64,000 bases of DNA from Bacteroidales bacterium (GTDB taxonomy: Bacteria > Bacteroidota > Bacteroidia > Bacteroidales > P3). The notes under the pieces are model-generated. The model did not search any database and was not told the DNA's origin. It saw only the letters and a list, made by a program, of their open reading frames with translations. Positions 5,081 through 52,700 of the stretch are shown here, in pieces. Location of the stretch: contig JAGCZH010000031.1 in NCBI GenBank assembly GCA_017960475.1, forward strand, positions 5,758 through 69,757. The letters are read 5' to 3'. Position numbers and translations under genes: made by a program. Numbering within the stretch: the first letter of the stretch is position 1; each line of letters begins with the position of its first letter.

Positions 5081-7183
5081 ATGATTTTCACCTACCCTTT
5101 GTTCCTTATAGGTCTTGTGGCTATGGCAATCCCCGTGATTGTCCATCTTTTTAATTTCCGTCGCTACAAGAAGATATTTTTCAGCAATGTCGAGAAATTG
5201 GAGGAAATGCAATCGGAGACTCGTCGTCAGTCGACATTACGGCAGATCCTTATCATGGTGGCGCGCATGTTGGCTATAGCCTTTTTGGCGCTCGCTTTTG
5301 CGCAGCCGGTGATTAAAAGAAGCGACAAAACTATTAGGGCAGGCAGAAATGATGTGGCTATCTTCATCGACAACTCGTACAGCATGCAGAATATCGATGG
5401 TAACGGTCCCATGATAGAAAAGGCCAAAGCCAAAGCCCGCGAGATTGTGGCGGCATTCGGCGAAGGCGACAGGTTCCATCTGATGACATGCGATGTTGAG
5501 GGGCGCCACTTCCATTGGCTTAGCAGAGATGAGATGCTCACTATGATTGACGAGGTGGAGCCTGGGAGTGCGTCGCCATCGTTATCGTCAATGATAGAGC
5601 GTCAGCGTGATTTTGTGCGTGGTGGCAGTGGCGAACATAAGGAGATTTTCGTGATTTCTGATTTCCAGACATCAGTAGCCGATATCGACAATTTTGTCAA
5701 CGACAGTGCTATTGCGGTGACCCTTGTGCCGCTTAAACCCTCGGAGCTTGATAATGTTTATGTCGACTCTGTGGCGCTAGGAGCTCCTGTATATTATCGT
5801 GGCAATACTGTTGAAACAGAGGTGTGGATTCGCAACGATGGCAGCGAGAACCTTGAAGGCGTGCCAGTGACACTGTATGTCAACGGGCGCCAGCGAGCTG
5901 TGGCCACTGTGGACCTTCCTGCCGAAGGCAGGACAGCGTTGATGATGCCTTTCACTGTCGATGCGACAGGTGTTTTGGACTGTCGTGTTGAATGTGGCGA
6001 CTATCCAGTCGTCTTTGACGACAGCTATTATTTCACGCTCAACATAAGGGAGTATATTCAAGGTCTTGTTGTTGAGGGTGGCGCCGCCAACGTCTTTTTG
6101 ACCCGTCTGTTTGAAGGCGATTCGGCTGTGAAAATGCAGACCATGAATGTGCAGCAGATGGACTGCAGCCGTGTCGACGGCAACGATGTGGTAATCCTTG
6201 ACGAATTGACATCTTTGTCGTCGGGTATGGTTCAGTCGCTGCGAACTTTTCTGGATGGTGGCGGCACTGTTGTTGTGGTGGTCTCCGACAAGGCCGATAA
6301 GGAAAGTTACAATTCGGCGCTAATGCAGTTTGGCGCTCCATCTCTGGAACAGCAGCATCGGGGTCGTGTGGCGGCAGGGACTGTCAGTATGGACAATGCC
6401 CTGTATCGAAATGTGTTCAATGGCCGCAATAGCGATATGGAGTTGCCGTCGGTTAACGACTATTGGCGTCTGACGACATCGTCGTCAACTATATATGAGC
6501 CTATTATCACCCTGTCCAATGGCGATGTTTATGTCAGTGTGACATCGTGTGGCTCGGGACGCATATACCTTGTGGCAGCGCCGTTGCGTGACGAACACAC
6601 CGATTTTGTCCGTCAGGCTCTCTTTGTGCCTACGCTATACAACATGGCGCTTTACAGCGTGCGGCCCTCATTGCCGGCGGTGTCGTTGGGAGGCAACACT
6701 CCCGTGCCACTCTCACAACGCTATGTCGGCTTGGAGAACATACACCTTGTCTCGGCGCAGTCCTCAATCGGAAGTAAAGACAGCAATGCGGCGATATTTG
6801 ATGTTATTGCCGATATCAGGGTTGTGGGGGGCGTGAGTAATCTGGTGCCTCACAGTAACTTGCATGAGGCTGGCAATTACTGGCTCCAATCGGATGGAAA
6901 AACCATAGAGGGTGTCTCTTTCAACTATTCCCGTCTCGAGTCGCAGATGAGCTTCTTGGAGCGGAGTCAGATATCGTCTATGCTGAAGGACTACAATCTG
7001 GACAACATATCTGTTGTAGACAATGTGGATAAGCCTCTTGACAGCTATTTGAAGGAACGTATGGATGGCAAGCAATTGTGGCGTTGGTGTCTGGTGTTTT
7101 CTTTGCTTATGCTTCTTGCTGAGATACTGTTGATACGTATTCCGAAAAAGAATAAAGTCAAGAGTGACGAACGGGCATCATGA
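5081..7183 (+). CDS. BatA-domain (aerotolerance-related N-terminal double-TM) membrane protein
   Basis: N-terminus FTYPLFLIGLVAMAIPVIVHLFNFRRYKKIFFSNV matches the BatA N-terminal domain pattern. There is a vWA-like region (DVAIFIDNSYSM) and a C-terminal TM. Confidence 0.6.
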   Translation: MIFTYPLFLIGLVAMAIPVIVHLFNFRRYKKIFFSNVEKLEEMQSETRRQSTLRQILIMVARMLAIAFLALAFAQPVIKRSDKTIRAGRNDVAIFIDNSYSMQNIDGNGPMIEKAKAKAREIVAAFGEGDRFHLMTCDVEGRHFHWLSRDEMLTMIDEVEPGSASPSLSSMIERQRDFVRGGSGEHKEIFVISDFQTSVADIDNFVNDSAIAVTLVPLKPSELDNVYVDSVALGAPVYYRGNTVETEVWIRNDGSENLEGVPVTLYVNGRQRAVATVDLPAEGRTALMMPFTVDATGVLDCRVECGDYPVVFDDSYYFTLNIREYIQGLVVEGGAANVFLTRLFEGDSAVKMQTMNVQQMDCSRVDGNDVVILDELTSLSSGMVQSLRTFLDGGGTVVVVVSDKADKESYNSALMQFGAPSLEQQHRGRVAAGTVSMDNALYRNVFNGRNSDMELPSVNDYWRLTTSSSTIYEPIITLSNGDVYVSVTSCGSGRIYLVAAPLRDEHTDFVRQALFVPTLYNMALYSVRPSLPAVSLGGNTPVPLSQRYVGLENIHLVSAQSSIGSKDSNAAIFDVIADIRVVGGVSNLVPHSNLHEAGNYWLQSDGKTIEGVSFNYSRLESQMSFLERSQISSMLKDYNLDNISVVDNVDKPLDSYLKERMDGKQLWRWCLVFSLLMLLAEILLIRIPKKNKVKSDERAS

Positions 7184-7220
7184 TATCTATAAAAGTTACA
7201 CGTTAAACTATAAACTTTAC

Positions 7221-8147
7221 TTGGCAGTGTTGATAGAGACTAAAAATATTGGAAAAAGTTTTGGCAGCCATTGTGCATTACGTGATGTCAGTGTCGGCGT
7301 GAGGGAGGGCTCTGTCTTTGGTCTTTTGGGTCCTAATGGCGCAGGCAAAACGACACTTATCAGGCTGATAAATCAGATTATTCTCCCCGACAAGGGTGAG
7401 ATATTGTTTGACGGACGTCCCATGACAGGCGATGATGTGCGTCAGATAGGCTATTTGCCCGAAGAGAGGGGATTGTACAAAAAAATGAAAGTCGGCGAGC
7501 AAGCGGTATATCTGGCTCGACTAAAGGGACTTTCACGCAGCGATGCCACTAGCAGGCTTATGCATTGGTTTCAGAAGTTCCAGATAGAGGAATGGTGGGA
7601 TCGCACCGTTGACCAGCTCTCGAAGGGTATGCAGCAAAAGGTTCAGTTTATAGTCACTGTGATTCATGAACCCAGGCTTCTTATCTTTGATGAGCCTTTT
7701 AGCGGTTTCGACCCCGTCAACGCCACACTGTTGAGAAACGAGATAATGGAGTTGCACAAAAAAGGGGCTACGGTAATATTGTCGACTCACAATATGACTT
7801 CCGTCGAGGAGCTGTGTGACGACATCGCATTGATAGACCACTCACAGGTTGTTCTGCACGGCAACTTCAAAGAGATCAGGGAATCGATGAGCACTAACTT
7901 ATACGAGGTCTCCGTCGACACAAAAGAGAACGAATCGACTGCCGCGGATCTGCCTTCGTGGTGTCATCATGTAAGTGTTGACGGCGATGGTAATGTTTTT
8001 AGATTCAAGCTTGATGAAGGGAAGAGTGCCAATGATTTGGTTGAGTTGCTATTGTCGAAATGCAGATTACTGTCGTTCCACGAGGTGTTGCCATCGATGA
8101 ATGACATCTTTATTGCCACAGTGACAGGAAAGGAGGTGGAGCAATGA
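7221..8147 (+). CDS. ABC transporter ATP-binding protein (ABC-2 type)
   Basis: Walker A GPNGAGKTT, signature LSKGMQQKV, Walker B LLIFDEP. The track ORF starts at 7164 inside the upstream gene. A TTG, GTG or TTG at 7221-7230 just before IETKNIGKSFG is more likely. Confidence 0.8.
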   Translation: MAVLIETKNIGKSFGSHCALRDVSVGVREGSVFGLLGPNGAGKTTLIRLINQIILPDKGEILFDGRPMTGDDVRQIGYLPEERGLYKKMKVGEQAVYLARLKGLSRSDATSRLMHWFQKFQIEEWWDRTVDQLSKGMQQKVQFIVTVIHEPRLLIFDEPFSGFDPVNATLLRNEIMELHKKGATVILSTHNMTSVEELCDDIALIDHSQVVLHGNFKEIRESMSTNLYEVSVDTKENESTAADLPSWCHHVSVDGDGNVFRFKLDEGKSANDLVELLLSKCRLLSFHEVLPSMNDIFIATVTGKEVEQ

Positions 8148-9517
8148 ATAAGATACTTCTTGTTATTCAGCGTGAATACTCTACTAGGGTGCGCAAGGTC
8201 TCGTTTTGGCTGTTGACAATTTTAGTGCCCATATTGCTGGCGGCGCTATATGCAATACCCATCTATATGGCCATGAAACCTCAGGACCGGGCGGTGGTGC
8301 TTGTCGCCGATGAGTCGGGCGCTTTTGGCGGTTTGGATAGAGATGATGCCAATCGTTCTGACAGCCGTTTCGTTTCCAATGAAGTTGTGGAATACCGTTA
8401 CGCCGCTTCGCTCGATTATGCTCGCCGTGTTATGGACGATGACGAAGATGTGAGTGCGATACTATACATCCGCAGTCGTGCCAGCGGAGCTATCCCCACT
8501 GATGCTTGTCTCTACTACAGGACAGATTTGCCTACACAGCAGACTCGTTATGATGTTGACTTGCAGTTGCAGCGTATCCTGCGTAACCGGCTTTTGCAGG
8601 CGCATGGTATCAGCGACGATGAATATGCGCTTATTTCCGGTACCAAAATCAACCTTCGTACCGAGGATTTAGAGACAGGACGTGAGGCTTTTCTGGGCGT
8701 TAAGACCGTTTTGGGACTTGTACTCGCTCTGCTAATCTATGTGGCCATTTTTATGTTTGGCTCCCAGGTTATGCGAGGTGTGGTTGAGGAAAAGTCCAGC
8801 CGCATTGTGGAAGTCGTGGTGTGCTCGGTGAAGCCATTCCAACTAATGATGGGTAAGGTGATAGGCATAGCCCTTGTCGGTTTGACCCAATTCCTTTTGT
8901 GGGTGGCGTTGACGGCGGTGGCTCTTGTTGGTATTCAGGCCGGAAACAGCGATCTTTTCGGTGCGGCGCAGCAGAAACACGCTGTGACAGAGATCGCCAC
9001 CAAGGGAAGTGAGGCGACGGCGCAGATGAGCCTTTCCGGCGATATGGCTGATGTGCCGCAACTTGTTGAAGGTATTGCCGCTATTGATTTCGGCGCCATT
9101 GTTCCCGCGTTCCTCTTCTTTTTCATTTTCGGCTATTTGCTTTATGCGACCCTTTTTGCCGCTGCAGGTGCGATGAGCGATAATGACACTGACACACAGC
9201 TCTTCTCGTTGCCATTGACGGTGCCGTTGTTATTGGTGTTGCTGCTTTTGCCGGCTATCGTCGACTCGCCGTCGGGCGGTTTGAGTGTGACTCTGTCGCT
9301 AATACCATTCACATCGCCTGTCGCCATGATGTTGCGCATACCCTTTGGTGTGCCTCTTTGGCAGCTATGGCTTTCTATGGCACTTATAGTCATAACATTT
9401 CCTCTATGTACCTGGTTGGCGGCAAAAATATACAGCAAATCCATCCTGAGATTCAATCTGTTGGCTTCATGGCGTCGTCGCCGAAATAACAATGTTGCCG
9501 ATGACAAAATGCAGTGA
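8144..9517 (+). CDS. ABC-2 type transporter permease
   Basis: Translationally coupled to the ATPase (ATGA overlap). It has an N-terminal TM, a large loop, then a C-terminal bundle of TM helices, as in NatB/YhaP-like ABC-2 permeases. Confidence 0.65.
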   Translation: MNKILLVIQREYSTRVRKVSFWLLTILVPILLAALYAIPIYMAMKPQDRAVVLVADESGAFGGLDRDDANRSDSRFVSNEVVEYRYAASLDYARRVMDDDEDVSAILYIRSRASGAIPTDACLYYRTDLPTQQTRYDVDLQLQRILRNRLLQAHGISDDEYALISGTKINLRTEDLETGREAFLGVKTVLGLVLALLIYVAIFMFGSQVMRGVVEEKSSRIVEVVVCSVKPFQLMMGKVIGIALVGLTQFLLWVALTAVALVGIQAGNSDLFGAAQQKHAVTEIATKGSEATAQMSLSGDMADVPQLVEGIAAIDFGAIVPAFLFFFIFGYLLYATLFAAAGAMSDNDTDTQLFSLPLTVPLLLVLLLLPAIVDSPSGGLSVTLSLIPFTSPVAMMLRIPFGVPLWQLWLSMALIVITFPLCTWLAAKIYSKSILRFNLLASWRRRRNNNVADDKMQ

Positions 9518-9611: not shown

Positions 9612-9619
9612 TATATTTG
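9612..9619 (+). promoter_or_regulatory. TAnnTTTG -7 element (tatatttg) upstream of the first island gene
   Basis: Exact consensus match, 78 nt upstream of the ATG at 9697 and inside the island just after the left direct repeat. Confidence 0.35.
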
Positions 9620-9696
9620 CACATTGTATATAAGTGGAAGAATGAGTGTGATAATGATTGCTAAATATTCATAATGAGATATTTCGGATAATTATT

Positions 9697-11477
<1,781 letters not shown>

Positions 11478-11599
11478 AAAATATAGTTATTCCCCACAAT
11501 TGGGTTGAATAATTGTCATGATTCTCACATTCTCACGCAAAACATCAAGAGACATATTATTTATACAAAATTATTTCAAGATTACTAATTAGATAGCCA

Positions 11600-12844
11600 A
11601 TGGACGTTTTTTCTCAAATTGACAACTCAGCATTCGAAAACGAACAAAAATCATCAAAAATTGATGAAACTAGAAGAATGCTATACGAAATTCGCGACAT
11701 CCCTACTTATAAAAATAGGGAATACAAAGGAGTTATTGTTCAAGACCCCAACAATCTTATTCTTGAAACAATTCTCGATTATTTGAAAAAAGGTACAGTC
11801 GATAAAACCGGCATTCTTCAGATTATTCAGAATGATAACAACGAGTTGAACTCTTATGTCGTAAAGAACCTTATGTCCCAAGGTGTTATCTGTGAGCAAG
11901 ACCTTCGCGAAATAGGAATCCCCGACACATTTATCGACATGCTCAACCGTAGCTATGAACCGATTAGTTTTCGACCGGGTGGTGCAATAGATAGAATCAA
12001 TAAGGTCTCAACTGAAATCTATTTCTGGGGAATACCTTCTTCGGGAAAGACATGCGCCATAGGTGCACTCCTCAGTACTCTGTCCAGACTTGACGATGGT
12101 CGAGTTATGAGAAAAGATAACGATTGCCAAGGATACGAATATATGACTTGTCTCTCATCTCTTTTCAACGACCAGACCGTCATGACACTTCCTGCTGGTA
12201 CTCCGGTTACAGCCACCTATGAGATGGCTTTCGATGTTTACGACAAAGCAAACCTGTATCATCCTATCACCATGATAGACCTGGCTGGTGAGCTGATTCG
12301 CTGTATGTACAAAAGCGATGCTCAAAGACAACTAAATCATGAGGAAGAGGAAACTCTTGAGACTATCACCAATCTGCTAGTGTCCCAAACATCCAAAAAC
12401 CAAAAGATCCATGTGTTTGTTATGGAATATGGTGCCGAAGAACGCAAATATGAGGGTCTGCCCCAATCTGACTATCTCGATGGTGCCATGAACTATATTG
12501 AACGTACTGGTATTTTCAGAAAAAACACCGATGCCATTATCCTACTTGTCACCAAGGCTGACAAAGCCGGCCATGATATGGAAACGCAAAGCAAAAAGAT
12601 TAAGGCTTATATCGAAAAATATTATAGTAATTTCAAAGGTGCTTTGGACAACCTCTGCATATCAAACGAAATCAACAACAAAAAACTCATAACGTTATTT
12701 ATTAGTTTGGGTGATGTCTGTTTTCAAGACTACTGTTTCTTTAGCAACAGACATGCTAAAAATGTTGTCAACAGAATTCTGTCACAGACATCTACTATTG
12801 ATACATCTCGTCGTGGATTATTTAAAAGTATCTTTGGAAAATAG
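11600..12844 (+). CDS. Island gene 3: P-loop GTPase (Ras-like/TRAFAC motifs) with an N-terminal extension
   Basis: G1 GIPSSGKT (12029-12052), G3 DLAGE (12278-12292), G4 TKAD (12551-12562), preceded by a roughly 140-aa non-GTPase N-domain. Confidence 0.7.
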   Translation: MDVFSQIDNSAFENEQKSSKIDETRRMLYEIRDIPTYKNREYKGVIVQDPNNLILETILDYLKKGTVDKTGILQIIQNDNNELNSYVVKNLMSQGVICEQDLREIGIPDTFIDMLNRSYEPISFRPGGAIDRINKVSTEIYFWGIPSSGKTCAIGALLSTLSRLDDGRVMRKDNDCQGYEYMTCLSSLFNDQTVMTLPAGTPVTATYEMAFDVYDKANLYHPITMIDLAGELIRCMYKSDAQRQLNHEEEETLETITNLLVSQTSKNQKIHVFVMEYGAEERKYEGLPQSDYLDGAMNYIERTGIFRKNTDAIILLVTKADKAGHDMETQSKKIKAYIEKYYSNFKGALDNLCISNEINNKKLITLFISLGDVCFQDYCFFSNRHAKNVVNRILSQTSTIDTSRRGLFKSIFGK

Positions 12845-12868
12845 ACGTATCTCAGAAAAAAATATATC

Positions 12869-14839
12869 ATGAAATTAGGTTTTGCAATCAATACGATCTC
12901 AGCAGGAGCTGGTAGTCCATGGTCGCGTAACGATGAGAACGGCTGGACAAAACATATTGGCGACCTGCGTCCTTTGCTTAATAGCTGGTCTAATCCTAAC
13001 AATGAACCGATTGATTTTATCAGGTTCATTGACGAAGGAGTGATGTTGGTCTCGATTATGCCTATCAGTGGACGTCCCAATGATCTTTGCTCCTATTATT
13101 TCTTTGTTCCGCGTCTGGCTCAGGTCACTGGCAAGGAACTCTTAGACATTGCCCACGAATTCATCGCTGCCAATGGCGCTGTCAAGGAACTGGAAGAAAT
13201 AGTGACTCGCGAGTTTCCTCAGCGTAAAAATCCATTTCCTTGCAAGCCTTCAGCGCAGACACCACGATGGGCATTGCGAAATTACGATGACGAGGCTCAA
13301 CTTGCCAAACTTATTGGTTCGGAATGCTATCAGAATTACTATGACGAATTCAACGCCATCTTCCTTGTCAAGAAAGGAACATCTGTAAAACCTGTCCAAG
13401 GAAGCCAGATAGTTGATATTTCTGACAAGAAAATTGTCGAAGTGGTAACTATGCTTCCTCCTTCGCCAGAAACATTGCAACGTGTGTTCGGCCGACGGAA
13501 TGTCGACATCTGCTTCAAAAGTAAAACGGGTGATATGGTCAAACTCCCGCCGGTAATCCTCCAGCGCGGCCAATCATTGTCTCTTTTCGCTATCCGTCCA
13601 GGCTTTGAACCTCTCAAGTGTATGATTACTGCCGACAACGACTATCAGGAAGGACGTCTACAGTCCGACATTGTCAAGTGGGTCTGTCAGATTAGTCCTG
13701 ATCGTTTTGTTGTTAAGGCTAGAGGTGATGTCAATGCCATTGTCGACAACTATGTCATCAAGCTCAACGGACACCCCATGGGTCCCAACGGCATCCGGCT
13801 TCTTGAGGAGGAATGCATGAGTTGCAACCTCTCGGTGACGGCCCCCGGCTACGAGGATTGGACCCCTGGCTTTTACCCTAACCAGATCAATATCCTCAAA
13901 TACGACAAGCTGGATATTTTCTTATCTCCCAGGAAATCGGAAGGCGGCAAATACTATGTCGAACTCGCCGACCATAGTCGGGCTGATATCAAAATTCGCG
14001 ACAATGGCGGCAAACTCTTAAAAGGCTACTATCTGGACAAGGATAAATGCTATTACTACAATGGTGCCCGTGCCATAACGATGACGCTCCTTGCTTTTTT
14101 GGCCGGTGTGTTACTTGTCGCTGCTATATGGGCAATTATTGGACATAGTTCAGGAACAGACAACGGTAAGACAAACGTGACACCAGAGGAAAAAATCGCC
14201 CAAGTGGTAAATTATCTGGAAAGTCATGATGATTTTCTCTCTGACGATTTCGTTAGATTAGATACATTCACAACATTGTTAGAATGCATGAACTGCTATA
14301 ACTATGATGCTCTTGTTCCAATGTTGACAGTCCTATCTTCTGATAGTTCGTCAAAAGCGGACGAACTCTTGAAATTCAAGGATAAAGGTATTGTTCATAA
14401 AGACTTGTTCGGTGATGGGGCTAAGCTGAATTATAATAAATACAAAGAGTCCCTTGAGGAAGGCGTCAAAATATACAACCTCCTCAGCGAAAAAAAATGG
14501 AACCTGGATGAATTCAAAAAATATCAACTTACAGAACAACTGTTCAATATACTCAATGATGGTAAATACTCACAAATAAAAAAAATGCCACGTTCTTTGA
14601 TTCAACATCCGAAGGTTAAGCCAATCTATGAGTTTATTCAAAATAAAAACTTTAAGGATTACCAATTCCAAAAAAACAATGGGCATTTCTTGCCCCAAAA
14701 AGACAAAGAAATAACAATTGATGGATATCTGACAATTATTAAACCCCTTATTGACACTCATAAAGAATCTCCTTCAAACAACAAAAAAAACACTCAAACA
14801 AAACAGAAGGCCGGTAGAAGTGACAGGGATGATAATTGA
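12869..14839 (+). CDS. Island gene 4: bitopic membrane protein (about 420-aa N-domain, one TM, about 215-aa helical C-domain)
   Basis: Single strong TM ITMTLLAFLAGVLLVAAIWAIIG. The N-domain contains beta-rich PEGA-like stretches (LFAIRPGFEP, LSVTAPGYEDW). No family recognised. Confidence 0.6.
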   Translation: MKLGFAINTISAGAGSPWSRNDENGWTKHIGDLRPLLNSWSNPNNEPIDFIRFIDEGVMLVSIMPISGRPNDLCSYYFFVPRLAQVTGKELLDIAHEFIAANGAVKELEEIVTREFPQRKNPFPCKPSAQTPRWALRNYDDEAQLAKLIGSECYQNYYDEFNAIFLVKKGTSVKPVQGSQIVDISDKKIVEVVTMLPPSPETLQRVFGRRNVDICFKSKTGDMVKLPPVILQRGQSLSLFAIRPGFEPLKCMITADNDYQEGRLQSDIVKWVCQISPDRFVVKARGDVNAIVDNYVIKLNGHPMGPNGIRLLEEECMSCNLSVTAPGYEDWTPGFYPNQINILKYDKLDIFLSPRKSEGGKYYVELADHSRADIKIRDNGGKLLKGYYLDKDKCYYYNGARAITMTLLAFLAGVLLVAAIWAIIGHSSGTDNGKTNVTPEEKIAQVVNYLESHDDFLSDDFVRLDTFTTLLECMNCYNYDALVPMLTVLSSDSSSKADELLKFKDKGIVHKDLFGDGAKLNYNKYKESLEEGVKIYNLLSEKKWNLDEFKKYQLTEQLFNILNDGKYSQIKKMPRSLIQHPKVKPIYEFIQNKNFKDYQFQKNNGHFLPQKDKEITIDGYLTIIKPLIDTHKESPSNNKKNTQTKQKAGRSDRDDN

Positions 14840-14927
14840 TTGTCAGTGTATTTAGCTTCTGGTTATTTCATAGTGGGTCTCTTAGCGCAACACAGGTTTT
14901 AATAGTTTATTATTTTCACTTATATTT

Positions 14928-15830
14928 ATGGAAATGTCGAAACCAATTAAAATAGTTATTCTTATAGTTGCAATAATTGCATCTGTTTCGGCTGTTTTGC
15001 TTTTCGCCAAAACCCAAGCCCAGCCACCAATTGACATGCATTTCCCTAATTCTCACAAATTGGCGCTGGAGCAGGATATTAAGTCTATGAATGAAGCATT
15101 TCCTAATGAGGACTTCTTTTCGCTAATAGTCAGTGAAATGGAATTTCAGACGAAGGAAGGTCTCATCGATACGCTTCAGAGGGATTCAGTGGCGGATCTG
15201 TTGATGATACAATATGTGCCTATTTTCCGTAAGTATTGTTGGAAATGTTTCGAAACTCAAGAATGGGATGCAAACAGTATGGCTGCCATTGAAAATCGTG
15301 TACGTGTATTGCAGTCATTTAAACATTTGCAATCCTCGTCAACAGTACTGGATAAATATGAGGCTCTATCGAATCGGGTGGATACTATTGTTCGTGTTGT
15401 TGACGACTATAATACTGCCATTAATCTGGTCCGACACACAGGTTTTGTATCTGCCAACAATTCCCGCAACGCTGTATCTAAAGCCAATGAACTAAAGAAC
15501 AAATATCCACTCAGGAATTATACTTCTCTGGTCGGACAACTTGACAGTCTTCGATATCAACTGGAAAGGGGTCATTATCAGTGGCTGAGTTCACGGGTCG
15601 ATATGTTGGATCTTGATAAATTACACAATTATTGGAGGAATAACCCGAAAGATTCTCTTTCTTTTGAGTCTTTCTGTTTGAGCCTTAACAATAGTTTGAA
15701 TGAATATGAGAATGCTTCTTTTTACCCTAATCGCCGAGATGTTAGTGGTTTGAGAAAGTCTTTATTGGATCGACGTAATGACGCCAAAAGTAAATACTTT
15801 ACGTTTAGAATAAATGGGAGAATAAGATAA
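14928..15830 (+). CDS. Island gene 5: N-terminally anchored helical protein
   Basis: Signal-anchor IKIVILIVAIIASVSAVLLFA followed by about 270 aa of helix-prone sequence. No family recognised. Confidence 0.55.
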   Translation: MEMSKPIKIVILIVAIIASVSAVLLFAKTQAQPPIDMHFPNSHKLALEQDIKSMNEAFPNEDFFSLIVSEMEFQTKEGLIDTLQRDSVADLLMIQYVPIFRKYCWKCFETQEWDANSMAAIENRVRVLQSFKHLQSSSTVLDKYEALSNRVDTIVRVVDDYNTAINLVRHTGFVSANNSRNAVSKANELKNKYPLRNYTSLVGQLDSLRYQLERGHYQWLSSRVDMLDLDKLHNYWRNNPKDSLSFESFCLSLNNSLNEYENASFYPNRRDVSGLRKSLLDRRNDAKSKYFTFRINGRIR

Positions 15831-15901
15831 TAATCTTCAAATAATAACTAGATGATGGCTTGTTATTCAAGTATTTTAAAATCAGAATAAAAAAAGATAT
15901 T

Positions 15902-16690
15902 ATGAAAAAAACACTGGTTGTTTTAATAAGTTTGCTTACATTTTTTGCTCTTTATGCTCAGAATGGTTCTGACGATTATGGAACAAAGGCAAAAAAACGT
16001 CCTTTCTGGGCAGTAAAGTATAATAAGTTATGCGACAAATACAATGCCCTTTTATTTAAATATCAGCAACTTGATTTGCATTTTCGGGATACTCTGAATT
16101 ATTATGAAGAGCGAGAATCTGCTTTCGTTGAAGCCTCACGTAAGTTTGAAGAAGATAGGGATAGTATCCAACCTACTCTTGACCAAATTCGTCTCGATAA
16201 AGAATCAATTGCAGAAGAAAAAGCCATACTTGAGAAACAATTAGAAAACTGCGATTGGGCTATAGCACGCTATTGCCATCTTAGACTACAACAGCAATAT
16301 AAAAAAGTCGCGGTTGAAAAGGCATTGAAGATGTGGAATACAATCACATCACCAGATGTTAAAGAGGTATACCTCGGAGTGGATGATATGTTGAAAAACT
16401 ATTATCGCTATTACAATGAAGTTAGAGCTGTTATTCAAGAGGCTCAAAATAGCCAGTTCCGCTACGATACATCTCCATTGTCAACATTCAAGAAAGACAT
16501 GAAAGACAAGATGATGAAAACAGAGTATCGTCGTAATAGGGATGATAATTATAAAATTGAGTTTCTTGATCAACAAATTGAGAATTTCTTTTATTGCCTA
16601 GATCATCTGGATCCTGAATGTGGCAAATATGATTTTTCACTGATTCTCGAGAAATTGTTTCCCAAAGTTGACGATAAACAAAAGAAGTAA
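15902..16690 (+). CDS. Island gene 6: secreted/periplasmic coiled-coil protein
   Basis: ATG at 15902. Signal peptide MKKTLVVLISLLTFFALYAQ, then charged heptad-like sequence (EEDRDSIQPTLDQIRLDKESIAEEKAILEKQLE). Confidence 0.55.
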   Translation: MKKTLVVLISLLTFFALYAQNGSDDYGTKAKKRPFWAVKYNKLCDKYNALLFKYQQLDLHFRDTLNYYEERESAFVEASRKFEEDRDSIQPTLDQIRLDKESIAEEKAILEKQLENCDWAIARYCHLRLQQQYKKVAVEKALKMWNTITSPDVKEVYLGVDDMLKNYYRYYNEVRAVIQEAQNSQFRYDTSPLSTFKKDMKDKMMKTEYRRNRDDNYKIEFLDQQIENFFYCLDHLDPECGKYDFSLILEKLFPKVDDKQKK

Positions 16691-16744
16691 TTTTGTTTGT
16701 GTTTGTATAAATCGGGACCTTATAGTAAAACCATAAATGATATT

Positions 16745-19513
16745 ATGATGGACATCTCTCGCGGTCTGCAGGCCTTTAAGTGCAATATGGACAGATTGCT
16801 CGCAGCTAAAAAGAGTGAGCTTTCGAACGAATTCGAGGAACTGCGTGGCTCAGTCACTGCTTATGTTGCCCAAATGGGAAGCAGCATGGATCCACTCAAA
16901 CTATCTGGTGGTGATGATGATGCCAAACCCATCGCTCCAACCCGTACTTCCCAACCCGAGGGTTTCCTCTTCGCAAACGAGCAGGTCTTCGATTTCGATA
17001 GAGGAAAATCTTTCGATTTTCCTCGTATTCACCGTTTTGTCGATGTGGCGGCAACAGCCATTCCAGAGGACTCGCGTTACAGCTATCTGCTCTTCAATTT
17101 CGCACTGATGGCAATATCATCTTACCCCATTGGCGACAGTAATGTTTTCATGATGGATTGCAATGTCGGTGGTGACTTCAACTATCTGTCTCCTATTTCA
17201 ACTCAAATTGACGAGGTCTCTATAGAGAAAAACAACTTTCATTATATTACCGATTTTGCCGAAATGAGCCGCGTCATTGATAGCCTCAAGGTGACGTGGG
17301 ACCGTAACATTCGCAATCTTCCTGCTGATTGTCCTGATCTGTTCCGGTACAACAAGCAGAATCCTGAGATGTTCCAGGCATTCAATTTTATCTTTATCCG
17401 CAATATTAATGAGACTATTTCGAATGCGGCATCGATAATGAAACTCTGCCAAATGGTAAAGTCGATGAACGCTACCAGAGCTGGAATCTATATCTTTTAT
17501 ACTTATAATTCGGCAAAGATAGCAGCTTCCGACAGTAATCGTTCTTATGACAATGTCGATGCCATCAAGGAATTGCTCAAACTCTCGTGCCGTATTGACG
17601 ATACCCCTCTCTGTAAACGCCACTCCACAATAACCCTCCGTCCCAAGGCTAATGCAAGGGTTGTGGAAAGAATACTGGAATTTGTCAGAACTGCTGAGCC
17701 CCCCAAGGTCGACATGTCGTTCCGTGACGAGATCATGAAAACCCTGGAACAACGCTCCCTTTGGAATCCACCTGCCAAGGACCGTAAGAAACATCTCCTA
17801 TTCCCAGTGGGCTTTGTTAACGCTACTACAAAAATGATGGTAGATGTGCCTTTCAACGCAGCACCCCATATCTATGTGGCAGGCAAGACTGGTAGTGGCA
17901 AGTCGATACTTCTTCACAATTTCATTCTCAACGGAGCTCTCCGGTATTCTCCCAATCAGCTTCGCTTTTTCTTGGTCGATATGAAAGGTGGAGTCAGTTT
18001 CATGACATATCGCAATCTGCCTCATGTGAGCGCTCTTTGTGCTTCGTCAAGTCGTCACTATGCGCAGAGTCTACTTGAAATGCTTTGCAGCGAAATCGAC
18101 AACCGCGCAAGGATATTCACTGCTGCTGGCGAGAATGTTTCGTCGCTTGACGACTACAACGAATATGCGTCGCAGCGCAATCTGCCGCTAATGCCTCACT
18201 ATTTCTGCATTATCGACGAGTTCCAACGACTATTCACAAATCATGATAGCATTTCCAGGAAGGCTGAAAAACATATCAGTTTCATACATGAGCAGGGACG
18301 CTCATACGGCATCTTCCTTGCACTCTGTACTCAGTCAGCCTCGGGCGATGTCAGCCGCGAACAGGTTGGAATTCGTCTGGCATTGAGATGTAACGAGCGT
18401 GTCAGCCAGTCGATTATTGGCAATGAGGGAGCCGCTAATCTTCGTGGCATAGGTCGGGCAGTTCTTAACAATTCCGAGAGCGGTGACGCTCGCTTCAATC
18501 AGGAATTCCAAGTGGCAAATATTAGCGAGAAAGATGACCTCCCGTTCTATGTGCGGACAATCAACGAGATATGGCTGGAACAGAACAATGGTACCGACCC
18601 GTTGTCCCATATGGTGTACTATGACAATGATCAGTCTTCTAAAATAACCGACAACCAATCGCTTCTCTCTCTAGGCTTTAACTCATCGGACTATCTAAAA
18701 ACTGTCTATCTTGGCAAGCCCTGCTTCTACCGCAAGGAACATGTCAAGTTTTTCTTCCATCGTGATTCCCAGAGCAATGTTATAGTCGTTGGCAACGACC
18801 GTCCCGCAGCATTGCGCTTGTTTGGTATCGTTGAGCATCAGTTCCGTCGTCAGTATGGTATGCATAAAACGCTGGTTTATATCTCTGATCTGCAGCGACA
18901 GACAGAGCCGACTTTCGGTAAACTCGATTTTCTGGCCGATATGGACGGCATCAGTGTTACCCATTCTGCGGAACTCAAAGATACCATAGATGAGGTATAT
19001 CAGTTGCTTACTATCCGAAAGTCAGACAGATCAGCTAGTGTCAATGCTCCAGAGGTGCTCTTCGCGATCGCCGACATTAAGCCGGATGACACTTTGAATC
19101 CTTCCTCAGGCCCATCGTTCTCATTCTCTCATTCTGCTGAAAAAACTTCACTTGCCATGCTGAAAGAAGTTGTCTGCGATGGCCCTGCTCTCGGTATCCA
19201 CACCATGCTTTATGGCTATAATATGGACAGCATCAGCAGATTCTTCGACAGGGAACTGCTTTCTATGTTTGAGATTAAGATTGGACTTTATGGTGGTAAC
19301 TCGTCATTGCTCTTCACATTCCAGGCTAACACCGAACTGGTAGGTAAGTGGGGTAGGGCTTTCGTACGTATGCCTGAGAATATGGGCATGAAATATGTCA
19401 ACGAGGATGTCCAGGGTGACCCATTCATAGTTTATAATACTGTCGGCGATACATATGTCGAAGATTCTGTATGGAATTGCCTTTTCAACAACTTGCCTAA
19501 CAGAGAGTACTAG
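16745..19513 (+). CDS. Island gene 7: soluble ATPase of three FtsK/SpoIIIE-like modules (degenerate, active, degenerate)
   Basis: The central module has Walker A GKTGSGKS (17882-17905), Walker B IIDEFQ (18209-18226), and LALCTQS and IRLALRCNE as in FtsK. The flanking modules align to it but lack the P-loop Lys and the acidic Walker B. No TM helix. ATG at 16745. Confidence 0.8.
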   Translation: MMDISRGLQAFKCNMDRLLAAKKSELSNEFEELRGSVTAYVAQMGSSMDPLKLSGGDDDAKPIAPTRTSQPEGFLFANEQVFDFDRGKSFDFPRIHRFVDVAATAIPEDSRYSYLLFNFALMAISSYPIGDSNVFMMDCNVGGDFNYLSPISTQIDEVSIEKNNFHYITDFAEMSRVIDSLKVTWDRNIRNLPADCPDLFRYNKQNPEMFQAFNFIFIRNINETISNAASIMKLCQMVKSMNATRAGIYIFYTYNSAKIAASDSNRSYDNVDAIKELLKLSCRIDDTPLCKRHSTITLRPKANARVVERILEFVRTAEPPKVDMSFRDEIMKTLEQRSLWNPPAKDRKKHLLFPVGFVNATTKMMVDVPFNAAPHIYVAGKTGSGKSILLHNFILNGALRYSPNQLRFFLVDMKGGVSFMTYRNLPHVSALCASSSRHYAQSLLEMLCSEIDNRARIFTAAGENVSSLDDYNEYASQRNLPLMPHYFCIIDEFQRLFTNHDSISRKAEKHISFIHEQGRSYGIFLALCTQSASGDVSREQVGIRLALRCNERVSQSIIGNEGAANLRGIGRAVLNNSESGDARFNQEFQVANISEKDDLPFYVRTINEIWLEQNNGTDPLSHMVYYDNDQSSKITDNQSLLSLGFNSSDYLKTVYLGKPCFYRKEHVKFFFHRDSQSNVIVVGNDRPAALRLFGIVEHQFRRQYGMHKTLVYISDLQRQTEPTFGKLDFLADMDGISVTHSAELKDTIDEVYQLLTIRKSDRSASVNAPEVLFAIADIKPDDTLNPSSGPSFSFSHSAEKTSLAMLKEVVCDGPALGIHTMLYGYNMDSISRFFDRELLSMFEIKIGLYGGNSSLLFTFQANTELVGKWGRAFVRMPENMGMKYVNEDVQGDPFIVYNTVGDTYVEDSVWNCLFNNLPNREY

Positions 19514-19515
19514 TT

Positions 19516-20682
19516 ATGAAATACTCAAATAAATATCAACAACTTGTAGATTCCGCCAAAAAGTTCAGCAATGATATAGTCGATGCTCATTCCTATGTTT
19601 TGGCTATGTCATCGGACTATTCTCAGCTGTCTCGTGCTGCTAATGATGTGAATTTTGCCCACAATTATAGCACTGCGATTCAGGACTTGAACAACATTAT
19701 TGCCGAATGGGATCTCAAGCGTCCAATCTCGAAGCTTAAGGAGGTAATCGATTCATTTGTTTCTGTAATCAAGACTTATGATGCAGCCATTATCACGCTA
19801 GAGGACAAATTCAAGAACCTTGTACGTCTTCCTGATCGCCACAACAAGGGAAACGTATGCAATACCTTGAAAAAATATATCGGCAATGTCGGTTCGGTTC
19901 ACTTTAAGGATGTTGAAAACGAAACTAAAAACGGAATACCTGCCCTTCTGAATTTGATAGACACACTGCTGGGTGATTTTTCGAAAGAAAGAGCCGATGT
20001 TATGTTAAATAACGAAATGGCCAATCAGCTTATAGATAGGCTTGAAGAAATCAAGGGTTGGCCAGATAGGTATAAGAAACAAGAGTTTGTGGCCAAATGT
20101 GAGTCAATCTTGTTTCAAGTTCTTCAGAACCCATGCAAAATTAACCCACAAGCTGATCAAAATAAATTATCGGCTGTGAAGAAAGGCATGGAGGGTTTCA
20201 AACAAATGTTTGAAAAGGAGATAATTGAAAACAAGAAACTTTTGACAGAACTTAAGAATAATAATAGTAGGGTATGGGAACACGATTACAAAAACCTGTC
20301 AAAGATGTTGAATCGGGAATCCATAGCGCACCTACAATATTCTCCGTCGGAATTAAAGAATCAGTACCTTTCTGCAAAGAACGATAAAAGTAGTTTCATC
20401 TCAGATATGGAAAACATACTTAGTCCTCGTATCAAAAAGAAATTCTCGGACCGGATTGACAAACTCTGTAATAGTTGTGTGACAAAGGACTTCGCCGAGA
20501 AACTGAAGCATGATATCGAAACGGACAAGAGCGATAACGTTAAGAAATGGCTTAAGTGGATTGGCATTGGTGTAGGTGGAGCTGGTGCGGTGATTCTAAT
20601 AATCAATTTTTACGAATATATTTTGATAGGAGCGCTGATATTAGGTGTTGTATGGTTCCTCCTTAGTATAATATTTGACTAA
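19516..20682 (+). CDS. Island gene 8: helical protein with a C-terminal double-TM tail anchor
   Basis: The ATG is 2 nt after the ATPase stop. About 340 aa of helical sequence, then WLKWIGIGVGGAGAVILIINF-YEY-ILIGALILGVVWFLLSIIF. Confidence 0.6.
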   Translation: MKYSNKYQQLVDSAKKFSNDIVDAHSYVLAMSSDYSQLSRAANDVNFAHNYSTAIQDLNNIIAEWDLKRPISKLKEVIDSFVSVIKTYDAAIITLEDKFKNLVRLPDRHNKGNVCNTLKKYIGNVGSVHFKDVENETKNGIPALLNLIDTLLGDFSKERADVMLNNEMANQLIDRLEEIKGWPDRYKKQEFVAKCESILFQVLQNPCKINPQADQNKLSAVKKGMEGFKQMFEKEIIENKKLLTELKNNNSRVWEHDYKNLSKMLNRESIAHLQYSPSELKNQYLSAKNDKSSFISDMENILSPRIKKKFSDRIDKLCNSCVTKDFAEKLKHDIETDKSDNVKKWLKWIGIGVGGAGAVILIINFYEYILIGALILGVVWFLLSIIFD

Positions 20683-20722
20683 TTAGTAACATGTTTTCTA
20701 TTAATCTTTAAAATAATTTATT

Positions 20723-49753: not shown

Positions 49754-52700
49754 ATGAAGAAAGTATCATTACTATTGGGAGTGATTTTTCTGATTTCGGC
49801 TTTTGTCGCCAACGGTCAGATTGTTACTAAGTACCAACAGGGATTTGAAAGCACAGGAGAGACTTATTCCTATACATCTCAAGGGAATGTCTCTACGGTA
49901 ACGAATGTTTACTCTTCTGGTCAGCGTTCAATAAAACTACAGCAAACTGTTGGAAGTGATGTTATTGTTACATTGGATACTATTGACTTCACCGACAATA
50001 GTAATTTCCAGTATTTCTATCTGGAATTTATGCACATCTGTACAGTCGACCCCCTTACAGGTCCTGCGCCTAACTCTATCGCAATAGTGCAGGTGAAAAA
50101 ACCGAATGAGACCCAATGGAGTACTTTGACGGGAAACCTTCACTATGACGTCAACTGGGGAGGAGGTAGTTCAGACTATGTTAGCAACAACTCATTCTCG
50201 GAGCGTTCATATGAGGTATGGCGTGGTTCTACAATCAATAATTCATGGTGGAAGCGCGAACGTTATAAACTTGAGACCGTTTTGCTTGGGCAGGGAACAA
50301 GCTTGAGTGATCGTAAATTAGAGGTGCGTTTTGTACTCAAGGCAAGAAATTCATCGGCTGGTCCTACAACGGATGGTTGGTATCTTGATAATATCAATGT
50401 CAAGTGCAGCCCTAACTCCATGCTTCTTCCTGTAGCCACACTGGTGGACTACCCTGATTTGATGAATTATCCTAACAGTCGTAACACTCACATCTCTGCA
50501 GATATCAGTACGACTCTGGCTCAGGGGATGAACGCCGACTCTATCTATTGCCTTTATCAGCTTGGTAGAAGCGCCCCGATTCGCCGAGTCAAACTCGATG
50601 CGGTTCCAGGTGTCACAAACCGCTATGAAACATATCTTCCATTCTGTGGATACGACACAGTCGTTTATTGGCGCATTGTGGCCAAAGATAACACAATCAA
50701 CCATAATTCGGCCACAATACCTTCAGACGCCACGTCATGGAACAAATATAAGAGTGTGCGAGGTTCCGCTATTAATTCTGCTTTCACTACCAACAATATC
50801 GGTACAACTAGCGAGGTACCATTCTCTTCGTATGGCGACTACAAGTGTCAAATAGTATACGATAGTGCGGAGATGGCGCAGGTATTTAAACCCGGTGCTA
50901 TATCTCAAATACGTTTCCCTGTGGCTTCTAATGTGTCAAACTCGACTCGTAACAGGTTTATTGTAAAGATGTGTAACATCGGTTCGGATTTTGTTTATAA
51001 CGTCAATTACGATGAGAACAATTCGTACTATGGTGAATATCAAAAACTTGTATATGATTCTTCTCTTGTTGTAACACAGAATGCTAACACTTGGGGAACC
51101 ATAAATCTTCAGGATACATTCTATTATGCTGGCAAGGGTCTGCTTATCACTATGATTTGCGATAATACTTCAAGCAACCCAAGTGGTATCAATGTACGCA
51201 CATTCCCCTCGTCGTCCGGAACATATACAGCGGGCTCTATCTATAAAGGTTATGGTGCGGAGTATTCTTATTCCCCATTTGACCAACAGGTTTTTAACTC
51301 TGGTTTGAGAAAGTCCGTGCGTCCGAATTTCATGTTTAAAATCAACGCCAATTTGCCGCTGTATTACGATTGTGGTATCAGTGGTTTCATCAACCCCAAC
51401 GATTCAACCCCAGCCAACGCGGTAGGCACCAACGACGTGGTGGTGACATTAAAGAATTATGGTAGTCAACCCATTAATGCTGTCCGTATTTACTACAGTG
51501 TCGATAATGGAGCCCACCAGTATTTTGACTGGACTGGCAACCTGGCAGGTGGCGCTACAACCAATGTCACCATCAGTACTACGCAGACATATCCCGCCGG
51601 CTATCATGAGATGTTGGCATGGGTTGATGACTCAGTGCTCCATGCTGGCGTCCGCTATAGAGACCATGAGCCTTTTAACGATACGTTATGGACTCGCTTC
51701 ATTAGTTGCGACGGACCCATGAGCGGAGTGCGTACCGTTGGTGGTGCCAATGCCGACTATGTCGACTTGGAGAAAATGCTCTACGCGTTAAGCCAGTGTG
51801 GTGTTAACGGCCCACTTACAGTAAAATTGGCAGGAGGTTTATATGGTCCAATAGTATTTCCGTATATACCAGGAGCGTCGTCCACGAACTACATTCTGTT
51901 TGAGCCTGCTACCGCAGCTCCGGCCCACGATGTGCTTTTCAATGCTCCAACGCCATCGGTTACAATGTCGACACCTGTCAATTACATTGTCAACCTGCAG
52001 CAGGCACAGTATATCCGTTTCAAACGAATCAACTTTGGAAGTAATGCCACAGAAAGCCGTGCGACATATTTGGTTCGTATGGGTACCAACAGTGTGGGAT
52101 GTCAGTTTGAGGACTGTGTCTTCACAGAGGGTATGGGTATTGGTGTTTCTGAATCGTTTATGACAGCGTCGGCGCTGCTCTATTCTGGTGGTGCGGACTC
52201 TTTGATTGTCAAGAATTGTACTTTCACACGTGGTAATACAGGTCTAAGCCTTGTTGGTCCCGCTCAGGACAACATGGCCCATGGCAGCAAGGTTTTGGGC
52301 AACTATTTCCAAAACCAGGGTATCAACAGTATGATTGTGCGTAACCAATATGATGCCGAGGTTGACAGCAACACATGCGATGACGTTTATGCCAACTCCA
52401 GTTATTGTATCTTGCTGCAAGATTGTAGCGGCGCCACAAAAGTCACCCGCAACACAGTGTATGTGACTTCTGGTGCCTCATGTATCGGTGCCACTAATTT
52501 CTTTGGTTCTGCGACAGCCTATGCTGTTGTGGCGAACAACATGCTCGTTAGCGCTGACAACGGTACGTCCAACATGCTTACCACTCCTTTGAACATTATT
52601 ACTGCCAACTATGCTAAGATCCTCTTCAACTCTATCAAACTTACCGCTCCTACTCGTGGTGGCATAGCAACTGCAACATTTGGTGGCGGCGTTCTGGAAA

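Follow-up and report, generated by a model that had tools for sequence, protein, structure and literature searches.

In a 64,000-nucleotide (nt) stretch of a Bacteroidales contig (JAGCZH010000031.1, positions 5,758 to 69,757), referred to as the window herein, we analyzed a gene on the + strand at 11600-12844. Its sequence and structural model identify the product as a TRAFAC-class GTPase of predicted guanine specificity. It belongs to a separate TRAFAC family, as yet uncurated, to which the DO-GTPases are, judged from sequence, the nearest described relatives. Comparison of its loci shows that the GTPase, gene C, is the constant soluble member of a conserved membrane cassette of co-oriented genes, A-B-C-D-E-F. 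We hold with moderate confidence that this GTPase of a Bacteroidales-centred family is the switch of a membrane-associated apparatus of the conflict or stress type and that an EssC-like ATPase module (genes G, H, and I) probably replaces SrfB and SrfC here. Known kinds cover each element, namely TRAFAC switch GTPases in multi-gene conflict systems and EssC-like modules lacking transmembrane (TM) segments. New here are the family of the GTPase, the partner genes, and the two alternative contexts, none of which is described in the profile libraries or the searchable literature. The GTPase gene and its motifs are as follows.

11600-12844, + strand: gene C, the GTPase, 414 residues from an ATG start, with a helical N-terminal domain (residues 21-120) and a G domain (residues ~135-400).
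12029-12052, + strand: G1/Walker A motif GIPSSGKT, residues 144-151, after β1 in the AlphaFold2 (AF2) model.
12191-12223, + strand: switch-I region PAGTPVTATYE, residues 198-208, with T201 as the G2 threonine.
12272-12292, + strand: G3/Walker B motif MIDLAGE, residues 225-231, a DxxG followed by Glu at the position of Ras Gln61.
12551-12565, + strand: G4 motif TKADK, the [NT]KxD guanine-specificity motif, residues 318-322, at the end of β5 in the AF2 model.
12704-12727, + strand: G5-like SLG (residues 369-371) and the conserved VCFQDYC stretch that follows it, from the alignment of 262 homologues.

An earlier note on this DNA had proposed a canonical G1 to G4 motif order, and all four motifs are indeed present in that order and conserved. 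In a MAFFT alignment of 262 family members, the G1 Lys, the switch-I Thr, DxxGE, and [TS]KxD are 93-100% conserved. Within the P-loop, K150 is kept in 261 of the 262 sequences and G144 and G149 are invariant or nearly so, while T201 of switch I is kept in 244. The G3 residues D227, G230, and E231 are found in 253, 258, and 252 sequences, respectively, and the G4 positions T/S318, K319, and D321 in 260, 259, and 261. The G5-like [ST]-[LIV]-G at residues 369-371 is kept in at least 252 (S/T369 in 252, G371 in 260). This set of motifs is far beyond chance.

We modeled the GTPase with AF2 on a 22-sequence alignment (predicted local distance difference test score, pLDDT, 82.8; predicted template modeling score, pTM, 0.82). 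In the model, β1 (138-144) leads into the P-loop and α1, T201 lies directly before β2 (207-214), and β2 forms a hairpin with the DxxG-bearing β3 (219-227), which ends in DLAGE. The earlier note had singled out the placement of TKAD as the point on which its G4 assignment could fail; the model places TKAD at the end of, or just after, β5 (310-318), as expected for G4. Its account of the flanking regions was half right. The N-terminal extension (~135 residues) is a helical domain with pLDDT values of 81-96 over residues 21-120, whereas most of the proposed 90-residue C-terminal region is the rest of the G domain (α4, β6, G5, and α5). When the model was compared with the Protein Data Bank (PDB) by Foldseek, we obtained 229 matches at E ≤ 1e-3, and those among them that were listed are all GTPases: Nog1-like PH1320, EF-Tu, YcjX, Gα, SRβ, and atlastin. 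The TM-scores are ~0.3, no GTPase family stands out, and Ras-like chains are not favored. By single-sequence and profile searches of the PDB we found no relative of the GTPase domain; the sole sequence match was a BamD-like repeat, to the N-terminal extension of the canonical long form. Taken together, the motif conservation in 262 sequences, the fold and strand order of the model, the Foldseek matches, and the 3312 sequence clusters that match the family profile indicate a genuine GTPase under selection.

The GTPase also carries four conserved cysteines, C152, C353, C374, and C379, kept in 204-250 of the 262 sequences (C374 in 204, C379 in 250). C152 directly follows the P-loop, and C374 and C379 lie within the VCFQDYC stretch after G5. 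These cysteines may form a metal or redox site.

The family comprises 1159 matches in a 90%-clustered database, its profile matches the above 3312 clusters at 50% identity (E ≤ 1e-3), and 120 loci were confirmed in a collection of 185,579 species-representative genomes. Its phyletic range is essentially Bacteroidales, and carriers include common gut and rumen members of the order (Parabacteroides distasonis, Bacteroides stercorirosoris, Prevotella, Alistipes, and Muribaculaceae). Members named by any source are called "hypothetical protein". Lengths range from 414 to 540 residues; canonical members have ~537 and carry their own N-terminal module (N-module), which is missing from the short form in the window and likewise from its 77-78% identical relatives. 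Searching plasmid and phage collections with the GTPase by tblastn gave no match.

As for the class of GTPase, the earlier note had called the protein Ras-like and MglA-type. It shares with Ras and MglA the G1-G5 motif order, the switch-I Thr, and DxxG, and a switch role on an envelope-associated machine is plausible. Unlike Ras and MglA, the family has 414-540 residues with a large N-terminal domain, insertions such as a conserved EYGAEDRKYEGL stretch at residues 276-287, no compact ~20 kDa G domain, and Glu (E231) in place of Gln at the catalytic position. No Pfam or NCBIfam family reaches threshold on the GTPase, and Ras, Roc, Arf, and MglA-type profiles in these scans gave no match even at E ≤ 1; "Ras-like" is therefore too specific. 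The only GTPase profiles that recur in scans of the family are DO-GTPase1 (PF19975), which matches 9 of 22 members, and DO-GTPase2 (PF19993), which matches 3 of the 22, all below threshold. One or the other also matches 6 of 9 members of a second, more divergent set. The window protein scores 19.0 and 15.4 bits against the DO-GTPase profiles.

As defined by Kaur, Iyer, Burroughs, and Aravind (eLife 2020; PMC7159879), DO-GTPases are TRAFAC GTPases that bear a conserved Walker-B Glu and occur in membrane-proximal conflict systems, where a GAP1 partner is encoded downstream. The Glu after the Walker-B DxxG is common to both groups (DLAGE in the window, with E231). Like DO-GTPases, the window family is the constant part of a multi-gene, membrane-proximal operon, has a conserved partner gene immediately downstream of the GTPase, and is associated with genes from the same pool, including Hsp70-like ATPases, proteases, vWA-PP2C-kinase triads, GYF, and TM proteins. 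Unlike them, it lacks a detectable GAP1-N/M/C, GASH, or FNIII partner and an N-terminal zinc ribbon (C98 is the single Cys in residues 1-135 of the window GTPase), and there is one GTPase gene per cassette instead of a paralogous pair. Its partners A, D, and E are orphan families, and its range is essentially Bacteroidales.

To define the cassette, we searched the window proteins by tblastn against 80 genome loci of the GTPase family, with flanks of up to 10 kb where the contig allows. The genes and features that accompany the GTPase in the window are listed below.

9658-10872, + strand: gene A, the first cassette gene, a polytopic membrane protein of 404 residues as an open reading frame (ORF), with a likely start at ATG 9697.
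10869-11477, + strand: gene B, between A and the GTPase, a short N-module followed by a long PEPEPI-type linker, with a likely start at ATG 10896.
11104-11404, + strand: a 24-nt tandem repeat in 12.8 copies that encodes the Pro-Glu linker of B as PEPEPI units (Tandem Repeats Finder, score 350-396, 77% match).
12869-14839, + strand: gene D, a 656-residue bitopic protein, after a 24-nt gap from the GTPase.
14928-15830, + strand: gene E, 300 residues, with an N-terminal membrane anchor (TM segment at residues 9-27).
15860-16690, + strand: gene F, an exported or anchored coiled-coil protein with an N-terminal hydrophobic signal and a likely start at ATG 15902.

The order A-(B)-C-D-E is conserved across loci. 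A homologue of A, whose hydrophobic segments in the window span residues 25-43, 51-69, 85-103, and 315-344, lies upstream of the GTPase in 74 of the 80 loci. Gene D, always the gene immediately after the GTPase, is found in 72 of 80 by tblastn and in 80 of 81 by ORF clustering, and gene E in 65 of 80 by tblastn. For F, most loci have a positional equivalent of ~230-290 residues after E, with weak sequence similarity (5 of 80 by tblastn). These partners diverge faster than the GTPase: across the 80 loci, D is 19-29% and E 21-31% identical, versus 36-49% for the GTPase. The layout of D comprises a cytoplasmic N-terminal region, a PEGA-like β-sandwich, one TM segment (residues 405-428, nt 14081-14152), and a helical C-terminal region; PEGA itself is matched by Pfam in 9 of 39 D-family members. 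A search of the PDB with the D profile gave no match, and its AF2 model, built on a 4-sequence alignment, has a pLDDT of 45 and yields nothing below E 0.4 in Foldseek. The D protein is 100% identical to NCBI J6Y98_08470. Pfam found no recurring domain in the A and E families, and PHROGs returned nothing for A-F.

Gene B matched by tblastn in 19 of the loci, positioned between A and the GTPase. At this place canonical loci encode a ~240-residue protein in which an acidic linker joins a short N-module to a DUF805 membrane domain. Gene B is the orthologue of this protein, with the DUF805 part missing in the window; DUF805 (PF05656) was detected on the orthologues in loci L169 and L170, and the orthologue sequences of L007 and L061 were compared. 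The same N-module also heads the canonical ~537-residue GTPases. We considered B and C as a split version of these longer homologues and rejected this, B being orthologous to the separate N-module/DUF805 gene. The linkers of B orthologues elsewhere are acidic and without repeats, and the repeat of gene B could vary in length between strains.

In loci L061 (16079-19400) and L013, a second D-like paralogue lies further downstream, from which it follows that the cassette can be partly duplicated. In L061, this paralogue is preceded by a 526-residue BamD/TPR-like repeat protein whose C-terminal part could, from its sequence, be a β-barrel.

The usual upstream context of the cassette was counted by ORF clustering and Pfam in the 63 loci with at least 9 kb of upstream DNA. 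The cassette is usually preceded by SrfB (PF07520), which is Hsp70-like, by SrfC/Virul_Fac (PF10139), a P-loop protein, and by a ~917-residue membrane protein with a C-terminal subtilase (S8) domain. SrfB is present in 58 of these loci, SrfC in 59, and S8 in 59, and the exact order SrfB-SrfC-S8-A occurs in 55. Downstream of the cassette are variable proteases (TPR-aspartyl, caspase C14, trypsin-like, and M54). In contrast, the window has no SrfB, SrfC, or S8 gene, and by tblastn neither ATPase G nor its followers H and I were found in any of the 80 GTPase loci. The FtsK-ATPase operon in which the earlier note had placed the GTPase is thus not its defining context. SrfB and SrfC are known from the srfABC operon of Salmonella and Xenorhabdus, and the cassette genes A-F lie outside this described three-gene operon. 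SrfABC has been reported as a tripartite toxin in Xenorhabdus (PMC6950479; preprint 10.64898/2026.09.18.752743). The GTPase as a paralogue of SrfC was ruled out (hhalign probability 0.24).

The genes that follow the cassette in the window form a second unit.

16697-19513, + strand: gene G, an EccC/EssC-like ATPase of the FtsK family without a TM segment, with a likely start at 16748, Walker A at nt 17882-17905, and Walker B at nt 18209-18226.
19516-20682, + strand: gene H, a 388-residue helical protein with a C-terminal TM hairpin (segments within residues 345-387).
20723-21421, + strand: gene I, a 232-residue helical protein with an internal duplication and two xGVPxQ turns (G47 and G169), from the alignment of the I family.

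Gene G has one clear FtsK_SpoIIIE domain (PF01580 at 6e-26), and no hydrophobic segment was found in it. Its profile matches EccC/EssC-type sequences in the PDB at 5.5e-45 (4nh0) to 2.2e-36, including YukB at 8.6e-37, versus 4e-23 for the FtsK DNA translocase; the best matches are EccC, EccC5, and YukB. Only the central P-loop is intact. In the N-terminal domain, a degenerate copy that aligns in register with the central one (hhalign E 0.0018), Walker A and B have been lost, and the C domain is probably degenerate as well, given GNDRPAALR in place of the P-loop and a second matched stretch in the EccC matches. Searches of PADLOC and PHROGs with G gave nothing beyond generic FtsK/HerA/SspH matches.

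G, H, and I travel together: H accompanies G in L082-L093 and L171-L173, and I has tblastn matches in 13 G-family loci (L082-L087 and L089-L094). Reciprocal to the linkage proposed earlier, the ATPase with H and I lacks the GTPase cassette in 9 of the 11 distinct contexts with enough upstream DNA. In those nine contexts, G heads its own module; the upstream gene is small, on the opposite strand, or absent, and the gap reaches up to ~1 kb. In L084-L087, L171, and L172, G-H-I is followed by vWA (1-3 copies), PP2C, Ser/Thr kinase, and GYF_2/DUF805 proteins, a TerY-P-type triad, whereas recJ follows I in the window. Close to G-H-I, loci L172 and L173 also carry TIR, nSTAND1, or Macro-TIR genes. 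G-H-I thus appears, from these gene neighborhoods, to be an autonomous, mobile module of the defence-island type. DUF805 proteins adjoin both the GTPase cassette and the ATPase module.

Bell et al. (eLife 2024, PMC11090510, citing Anantharaman et al. 2012) describe EssC-like ATPases that lack TM helices, have only the central domain active, and lie between vWA genes beside TerY-P triads, and they consider them a mobile unit. Gene G is alike in its EccC/EssC-type domain, its lack of TM helices, its central-only Walker A and B, and its behavior as a mobile module, and its homologues likewise precede vWA (1-3), PP2C, and Ser/Thr kinase genes. It differs in having no long N-terminal coiled coil and no nuclease or McrBC genes nearby, in its partners H (TM hairpin) and I (GVP-turn duplication), which are not recognizable WXG100 proteins, and in following the GTPase cassette instead of vWA genes. 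Each half of I has an invariant G-V-P turn between helices, and many loci have two paralogous copies of I. The duplicated I recalls the paired WXG100-like proteins reported beside such ATPases, with no sequence support.

In the window, the GTPase is on the same strand as G and ~3.8 kb upstream of it. All nine genes, A-I, are co-oriented with gaps of -4 to 122 nt, and the gap from F to G is 6 nt (57 nt if G starts at ATG 16748). The A-I block (9658-21421) has a G+C content of 40.8%, versus 48.3% in the left flank and 45.8% in the right, and lies between an ABC-2 transporter pair and recJ, which together suggest that it is an acquired island. The joining of cassette and ATPase was seen only in one lineage, made up of the window, L081, and L088. 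In L081, identity to the window proteins is 77% for the GTPase, 59% for D, 49% for E, and 45% for F; behind the cassette lies an FtsK-like ATPase that shares only 25% identity with G, along with an H-like partner that shares the architecture and the WxKWxGIG motif of H. In L088, the corresponding values are 39% (GTPase), 40% (D), and 33% (E), and the ATPase that follows is of the G type, at 38% identity. A neighbor-joining tree of 119 G domains groups the window, P0002, P0003 (L081), and L088 in an exclusive four-member clade, which spans 39% GTPase identity and in which P0002 has no context data. The linkage of GTPase and ATPase put forward in the earlier note accordingly stands within this lineage, where it recurs, and fails across the 80 other loci.

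Motifs of the Bacteroidetes -7 type, TAnnTTTG, lie on the + strand just upstream of A (9612-9619), D (12829-12836), and G (16688-16695). With 54 copies in the window versus 44 expected, the motif is not enriched, and promoter and terminator scans gave counts not above shuffled expectation and did not set operon boundaries. The copy at 16688 gives no more than a hint of a possible separate promoter for G-H-I.

Taken together, the recurrence in L081 and L088, the clade, the absence of Srf genes in the window, the co-orientation, the short gaps, and the shared low G+C argue for a lineage whose cassette exchanged its Srf partner for an EssC-like module, with some functional coupling. Such coupling of cassette and ATPase within this lineage is plausible from the gene arrangement. 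In the mechanism we propose, the GTPase would be a nucleotide-dependent switch that cycles between GTP- and GDP-bound states, binding GTP via G1, G4, and G5 and hydrolyzing it with support from the switch-I Thr201 and Glu231 (the Ras Gln61 position). The nucleotide state would alter how the GTPase associates with the N-terminal, cytoplasmic region of D and perhaps with A, and this switching would gate a membrane-embedded apparatus of the conflict or stress type, analogous to DO-GTPase/GAP1 pairs (Kaur et al. 2020). The N-terminal helical domain of the GTPase and the shared N-module carried by B (B/DUF805) could serve as docking adaptors. In the window lineage, the EssC-like ATPase module would probably stand in place of SrfB/SrfC as the associated NTPase engine, a putative coupling. 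Speculatively, the cassette would recruit the soluble EssC-like hexamer through H or through its own membrane proteins.

Several points weigh against this reading. No scanned member reaches the Pfam gathering score for DO-GTPase; the best match in the family (4e-5) has 23.5 bits versus a cut-off of 27. GAP1, the defining partner of DO-GTPases, has no Pfam match in 39 D-family members, and PADLOC has no defence model for A-F. The putative function of the cassette is read from gene context alone, and the supposed contact between GTPase and D from position alone, with the N-domain of D modeled at a pLDDT of only 45. The tree that unites the lineage was computed without bootstrap, and upstream DNA is missing from L081 and L088, such that the loss of Srf genes in the lineage is seen for the window only. 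Lastly, the adjacency to G-H-I could be island clustering, the module being self-sufficient elsewhere and headed by G in all nine other contexts.

Since both modules are autonomous elsewhere, this last point amounts to a serious rival, in which A-F and G-H-I are two independent systems that are neighbors only through a shared variable or defence-type island. Each module is complete and common without the other, a TAnnTTTG copy sits just before G (if in a window not enriched for it), TIR, nSTAND, and Macro-TIR genes occur near G-H-I in L172 and L173, and the L081 ATPase is of a different lineage (25%) beside a cassette that is 45-77% identical, which implies modular replacement. That same swap also speaks the other way: the juxtaposition outlasts it, which is unexpected for chance adjacency, and persists across GTPases that are only 39% identical (L088). 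Moreover, F and G are separated by only 6-57 nt and co-oriented, and the usual SrfB/SrfC/S8 partner is absent from the window, as if replaced. On balance, we regard mere adjacency as possible and somewhat unlikely.

Replacement within a switch-controlled conflict or stress apparatus also has to be weighed against an ordinary role for the cassette. The cassette could be a housekeeping system of envelope or cell-surface assembly, for instance in membrane remodeling or SrfABC-type toxin delivery, with the GTPase as an assembly factor and no part in conflict or defence. The cassette keeps a fixed gene order and is very widespread, occurring in Bacteroides, Prevotella, Alistipes, Parabacteroides, and Muribaculaceae; it encodes several membrane or exported proteins, and it shows no PADLOC, phage, or plasmid signal. 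The tripartite toxin reported in Xenorhabdus (PMC6950479; 10.64898/2026.09.18.752743) would also fit. However, the number of confirmed loci relative to the species representatives searched marks it as accessory rather than universal, and its G+C is island-like, its partners evolve fast, and the downstream proteases vary (caspase, trypsin, M54, and aspartyl). We consider a housekeeping role unlikely.

A bolder version of our preferred reading treats A-F as a modular, GTP-gated membrane platform that docks alternative cytoplasmic NTPase engines, usually SrfB and SrfC and here a hexameric EssC-like ATPase without TM segments. If this were true, the window would encode a previously unknown trans-envelope apparatus for export or effector deployment in diderm Bacteroidales, and the GTPase would license a T7SS-type ATPase that has no membrane anchor of its own (T7SS, type VII secretion system). 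We think such a platform improbable.

The earlier note had viewed the locus in the light of a T7SS. We know of no GTPase in any T7SS, and nothing relevant came up when the literature was searched for SrfB in Bacteroides or for a T7SS in Bacteroidota. In the corresponding explanation, the GTPase would be a regulatory subunit of a T7SS-like export machine, gating or positioning the FtsK/EssC-type translocase as MglA-type GTPases do envelope machines. Gene G does share the FtsK-type ATPase domain of EccC/EssC with the ESX and Ess systems and, as above, is nearer to these than to FtsK. Like T7SS substrates and partners, H and I are helical proteins, and the window copy of I has a WKG turn. Three contigs of a single GTPase lineage retain the linkage, and the cassette offers several membrane proteins that an ATPase without TM segments would need. 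In contrast to T7SS ATPases, G has no membrane anchor or FHA region and one active domain, and it falls far below the equivalog cut-offs for EccCa (TIGR03924, 127.8 versus 509 bits) and EssC (TIGR03928, 104 versus 778 bits). None of the nine proteins has a significant WXG100 or LXG match (LXG reaches E 0.75 on H), and Pfam and NCBIfam detect no EccB/D/E, MycP (mycosin), EsaA, EssA, or EssB among them. At the WKG turn, the I family conserves GVP but not the W, and neither Pfam nor a PDB profile search of the family finds WXG100, leaving the helical-hairpin architecture as a possible resemblance at the level of fold. Pfam matches no Roadblock/MglB-type partner in A, D, E, F, H, or I, and there is no Ras/MglA profile match to the GTPase itself. 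The ATPase is absent from the 80 other GTPase loci, and the GTPase from most ATPase contexts. The window comes from the metagenome-assembled genome of a diderm Bacteroidales and also contains cargo of the type IX secretion system (T9SS). With no T7SS core family detected and such a host, the T7SS reading rests only on the type of ATPase domain; the GTPase as a T7SS component is unsupported, this explanation is very doubtful, and an attractive idea is hereby corrected.

Lastly, that gene C is in practice no GTPase, being instead an ATP-using P-loop NTPase or an inactive pseudo-GTPase scaffold, is scarcely credible: although it has no sequence match to any solved structure and Glu replaces the usual catalytic Gln, its [NT]KxD, G5-like SxG, P-loop Lys, and switch-I Thr are essentially invariant, which a pseudo-enzyme would not keep, and G4 follows β5 in the model, as in real GTPases.

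The analysis defines a testable unit: the GTPase with A, D, and E as fixed partners and, as alternative neighbors, either SrfB/SrfC/subtilase or the EssC-like ATPase module. It bears on two poorly understood matters, the role of the widespread srfBC genes outside enterobacteria and that of EssC-like ATPases without TM segments in diderm bacteria.

The genes upstream of the cassette in the window are the following.

5081-7183: a BatA/vWA membrane protein.
7164-8147: an ABC ATPase.
8144-9517: an ABC-2 permease, directly upstream of the cassette.

None of these genes (5081-9517) has an equivalent ahead of the cassette in the other 80 loci. Further along, a giant ORF of 3990 residues (49754-61726) carries GEVED and CARDB domains and a Por_Secre_tail domain, which is the C-terminal sorting domain of the T9SS, and this ORF indicates a Bacteroidota host with that secretion system.

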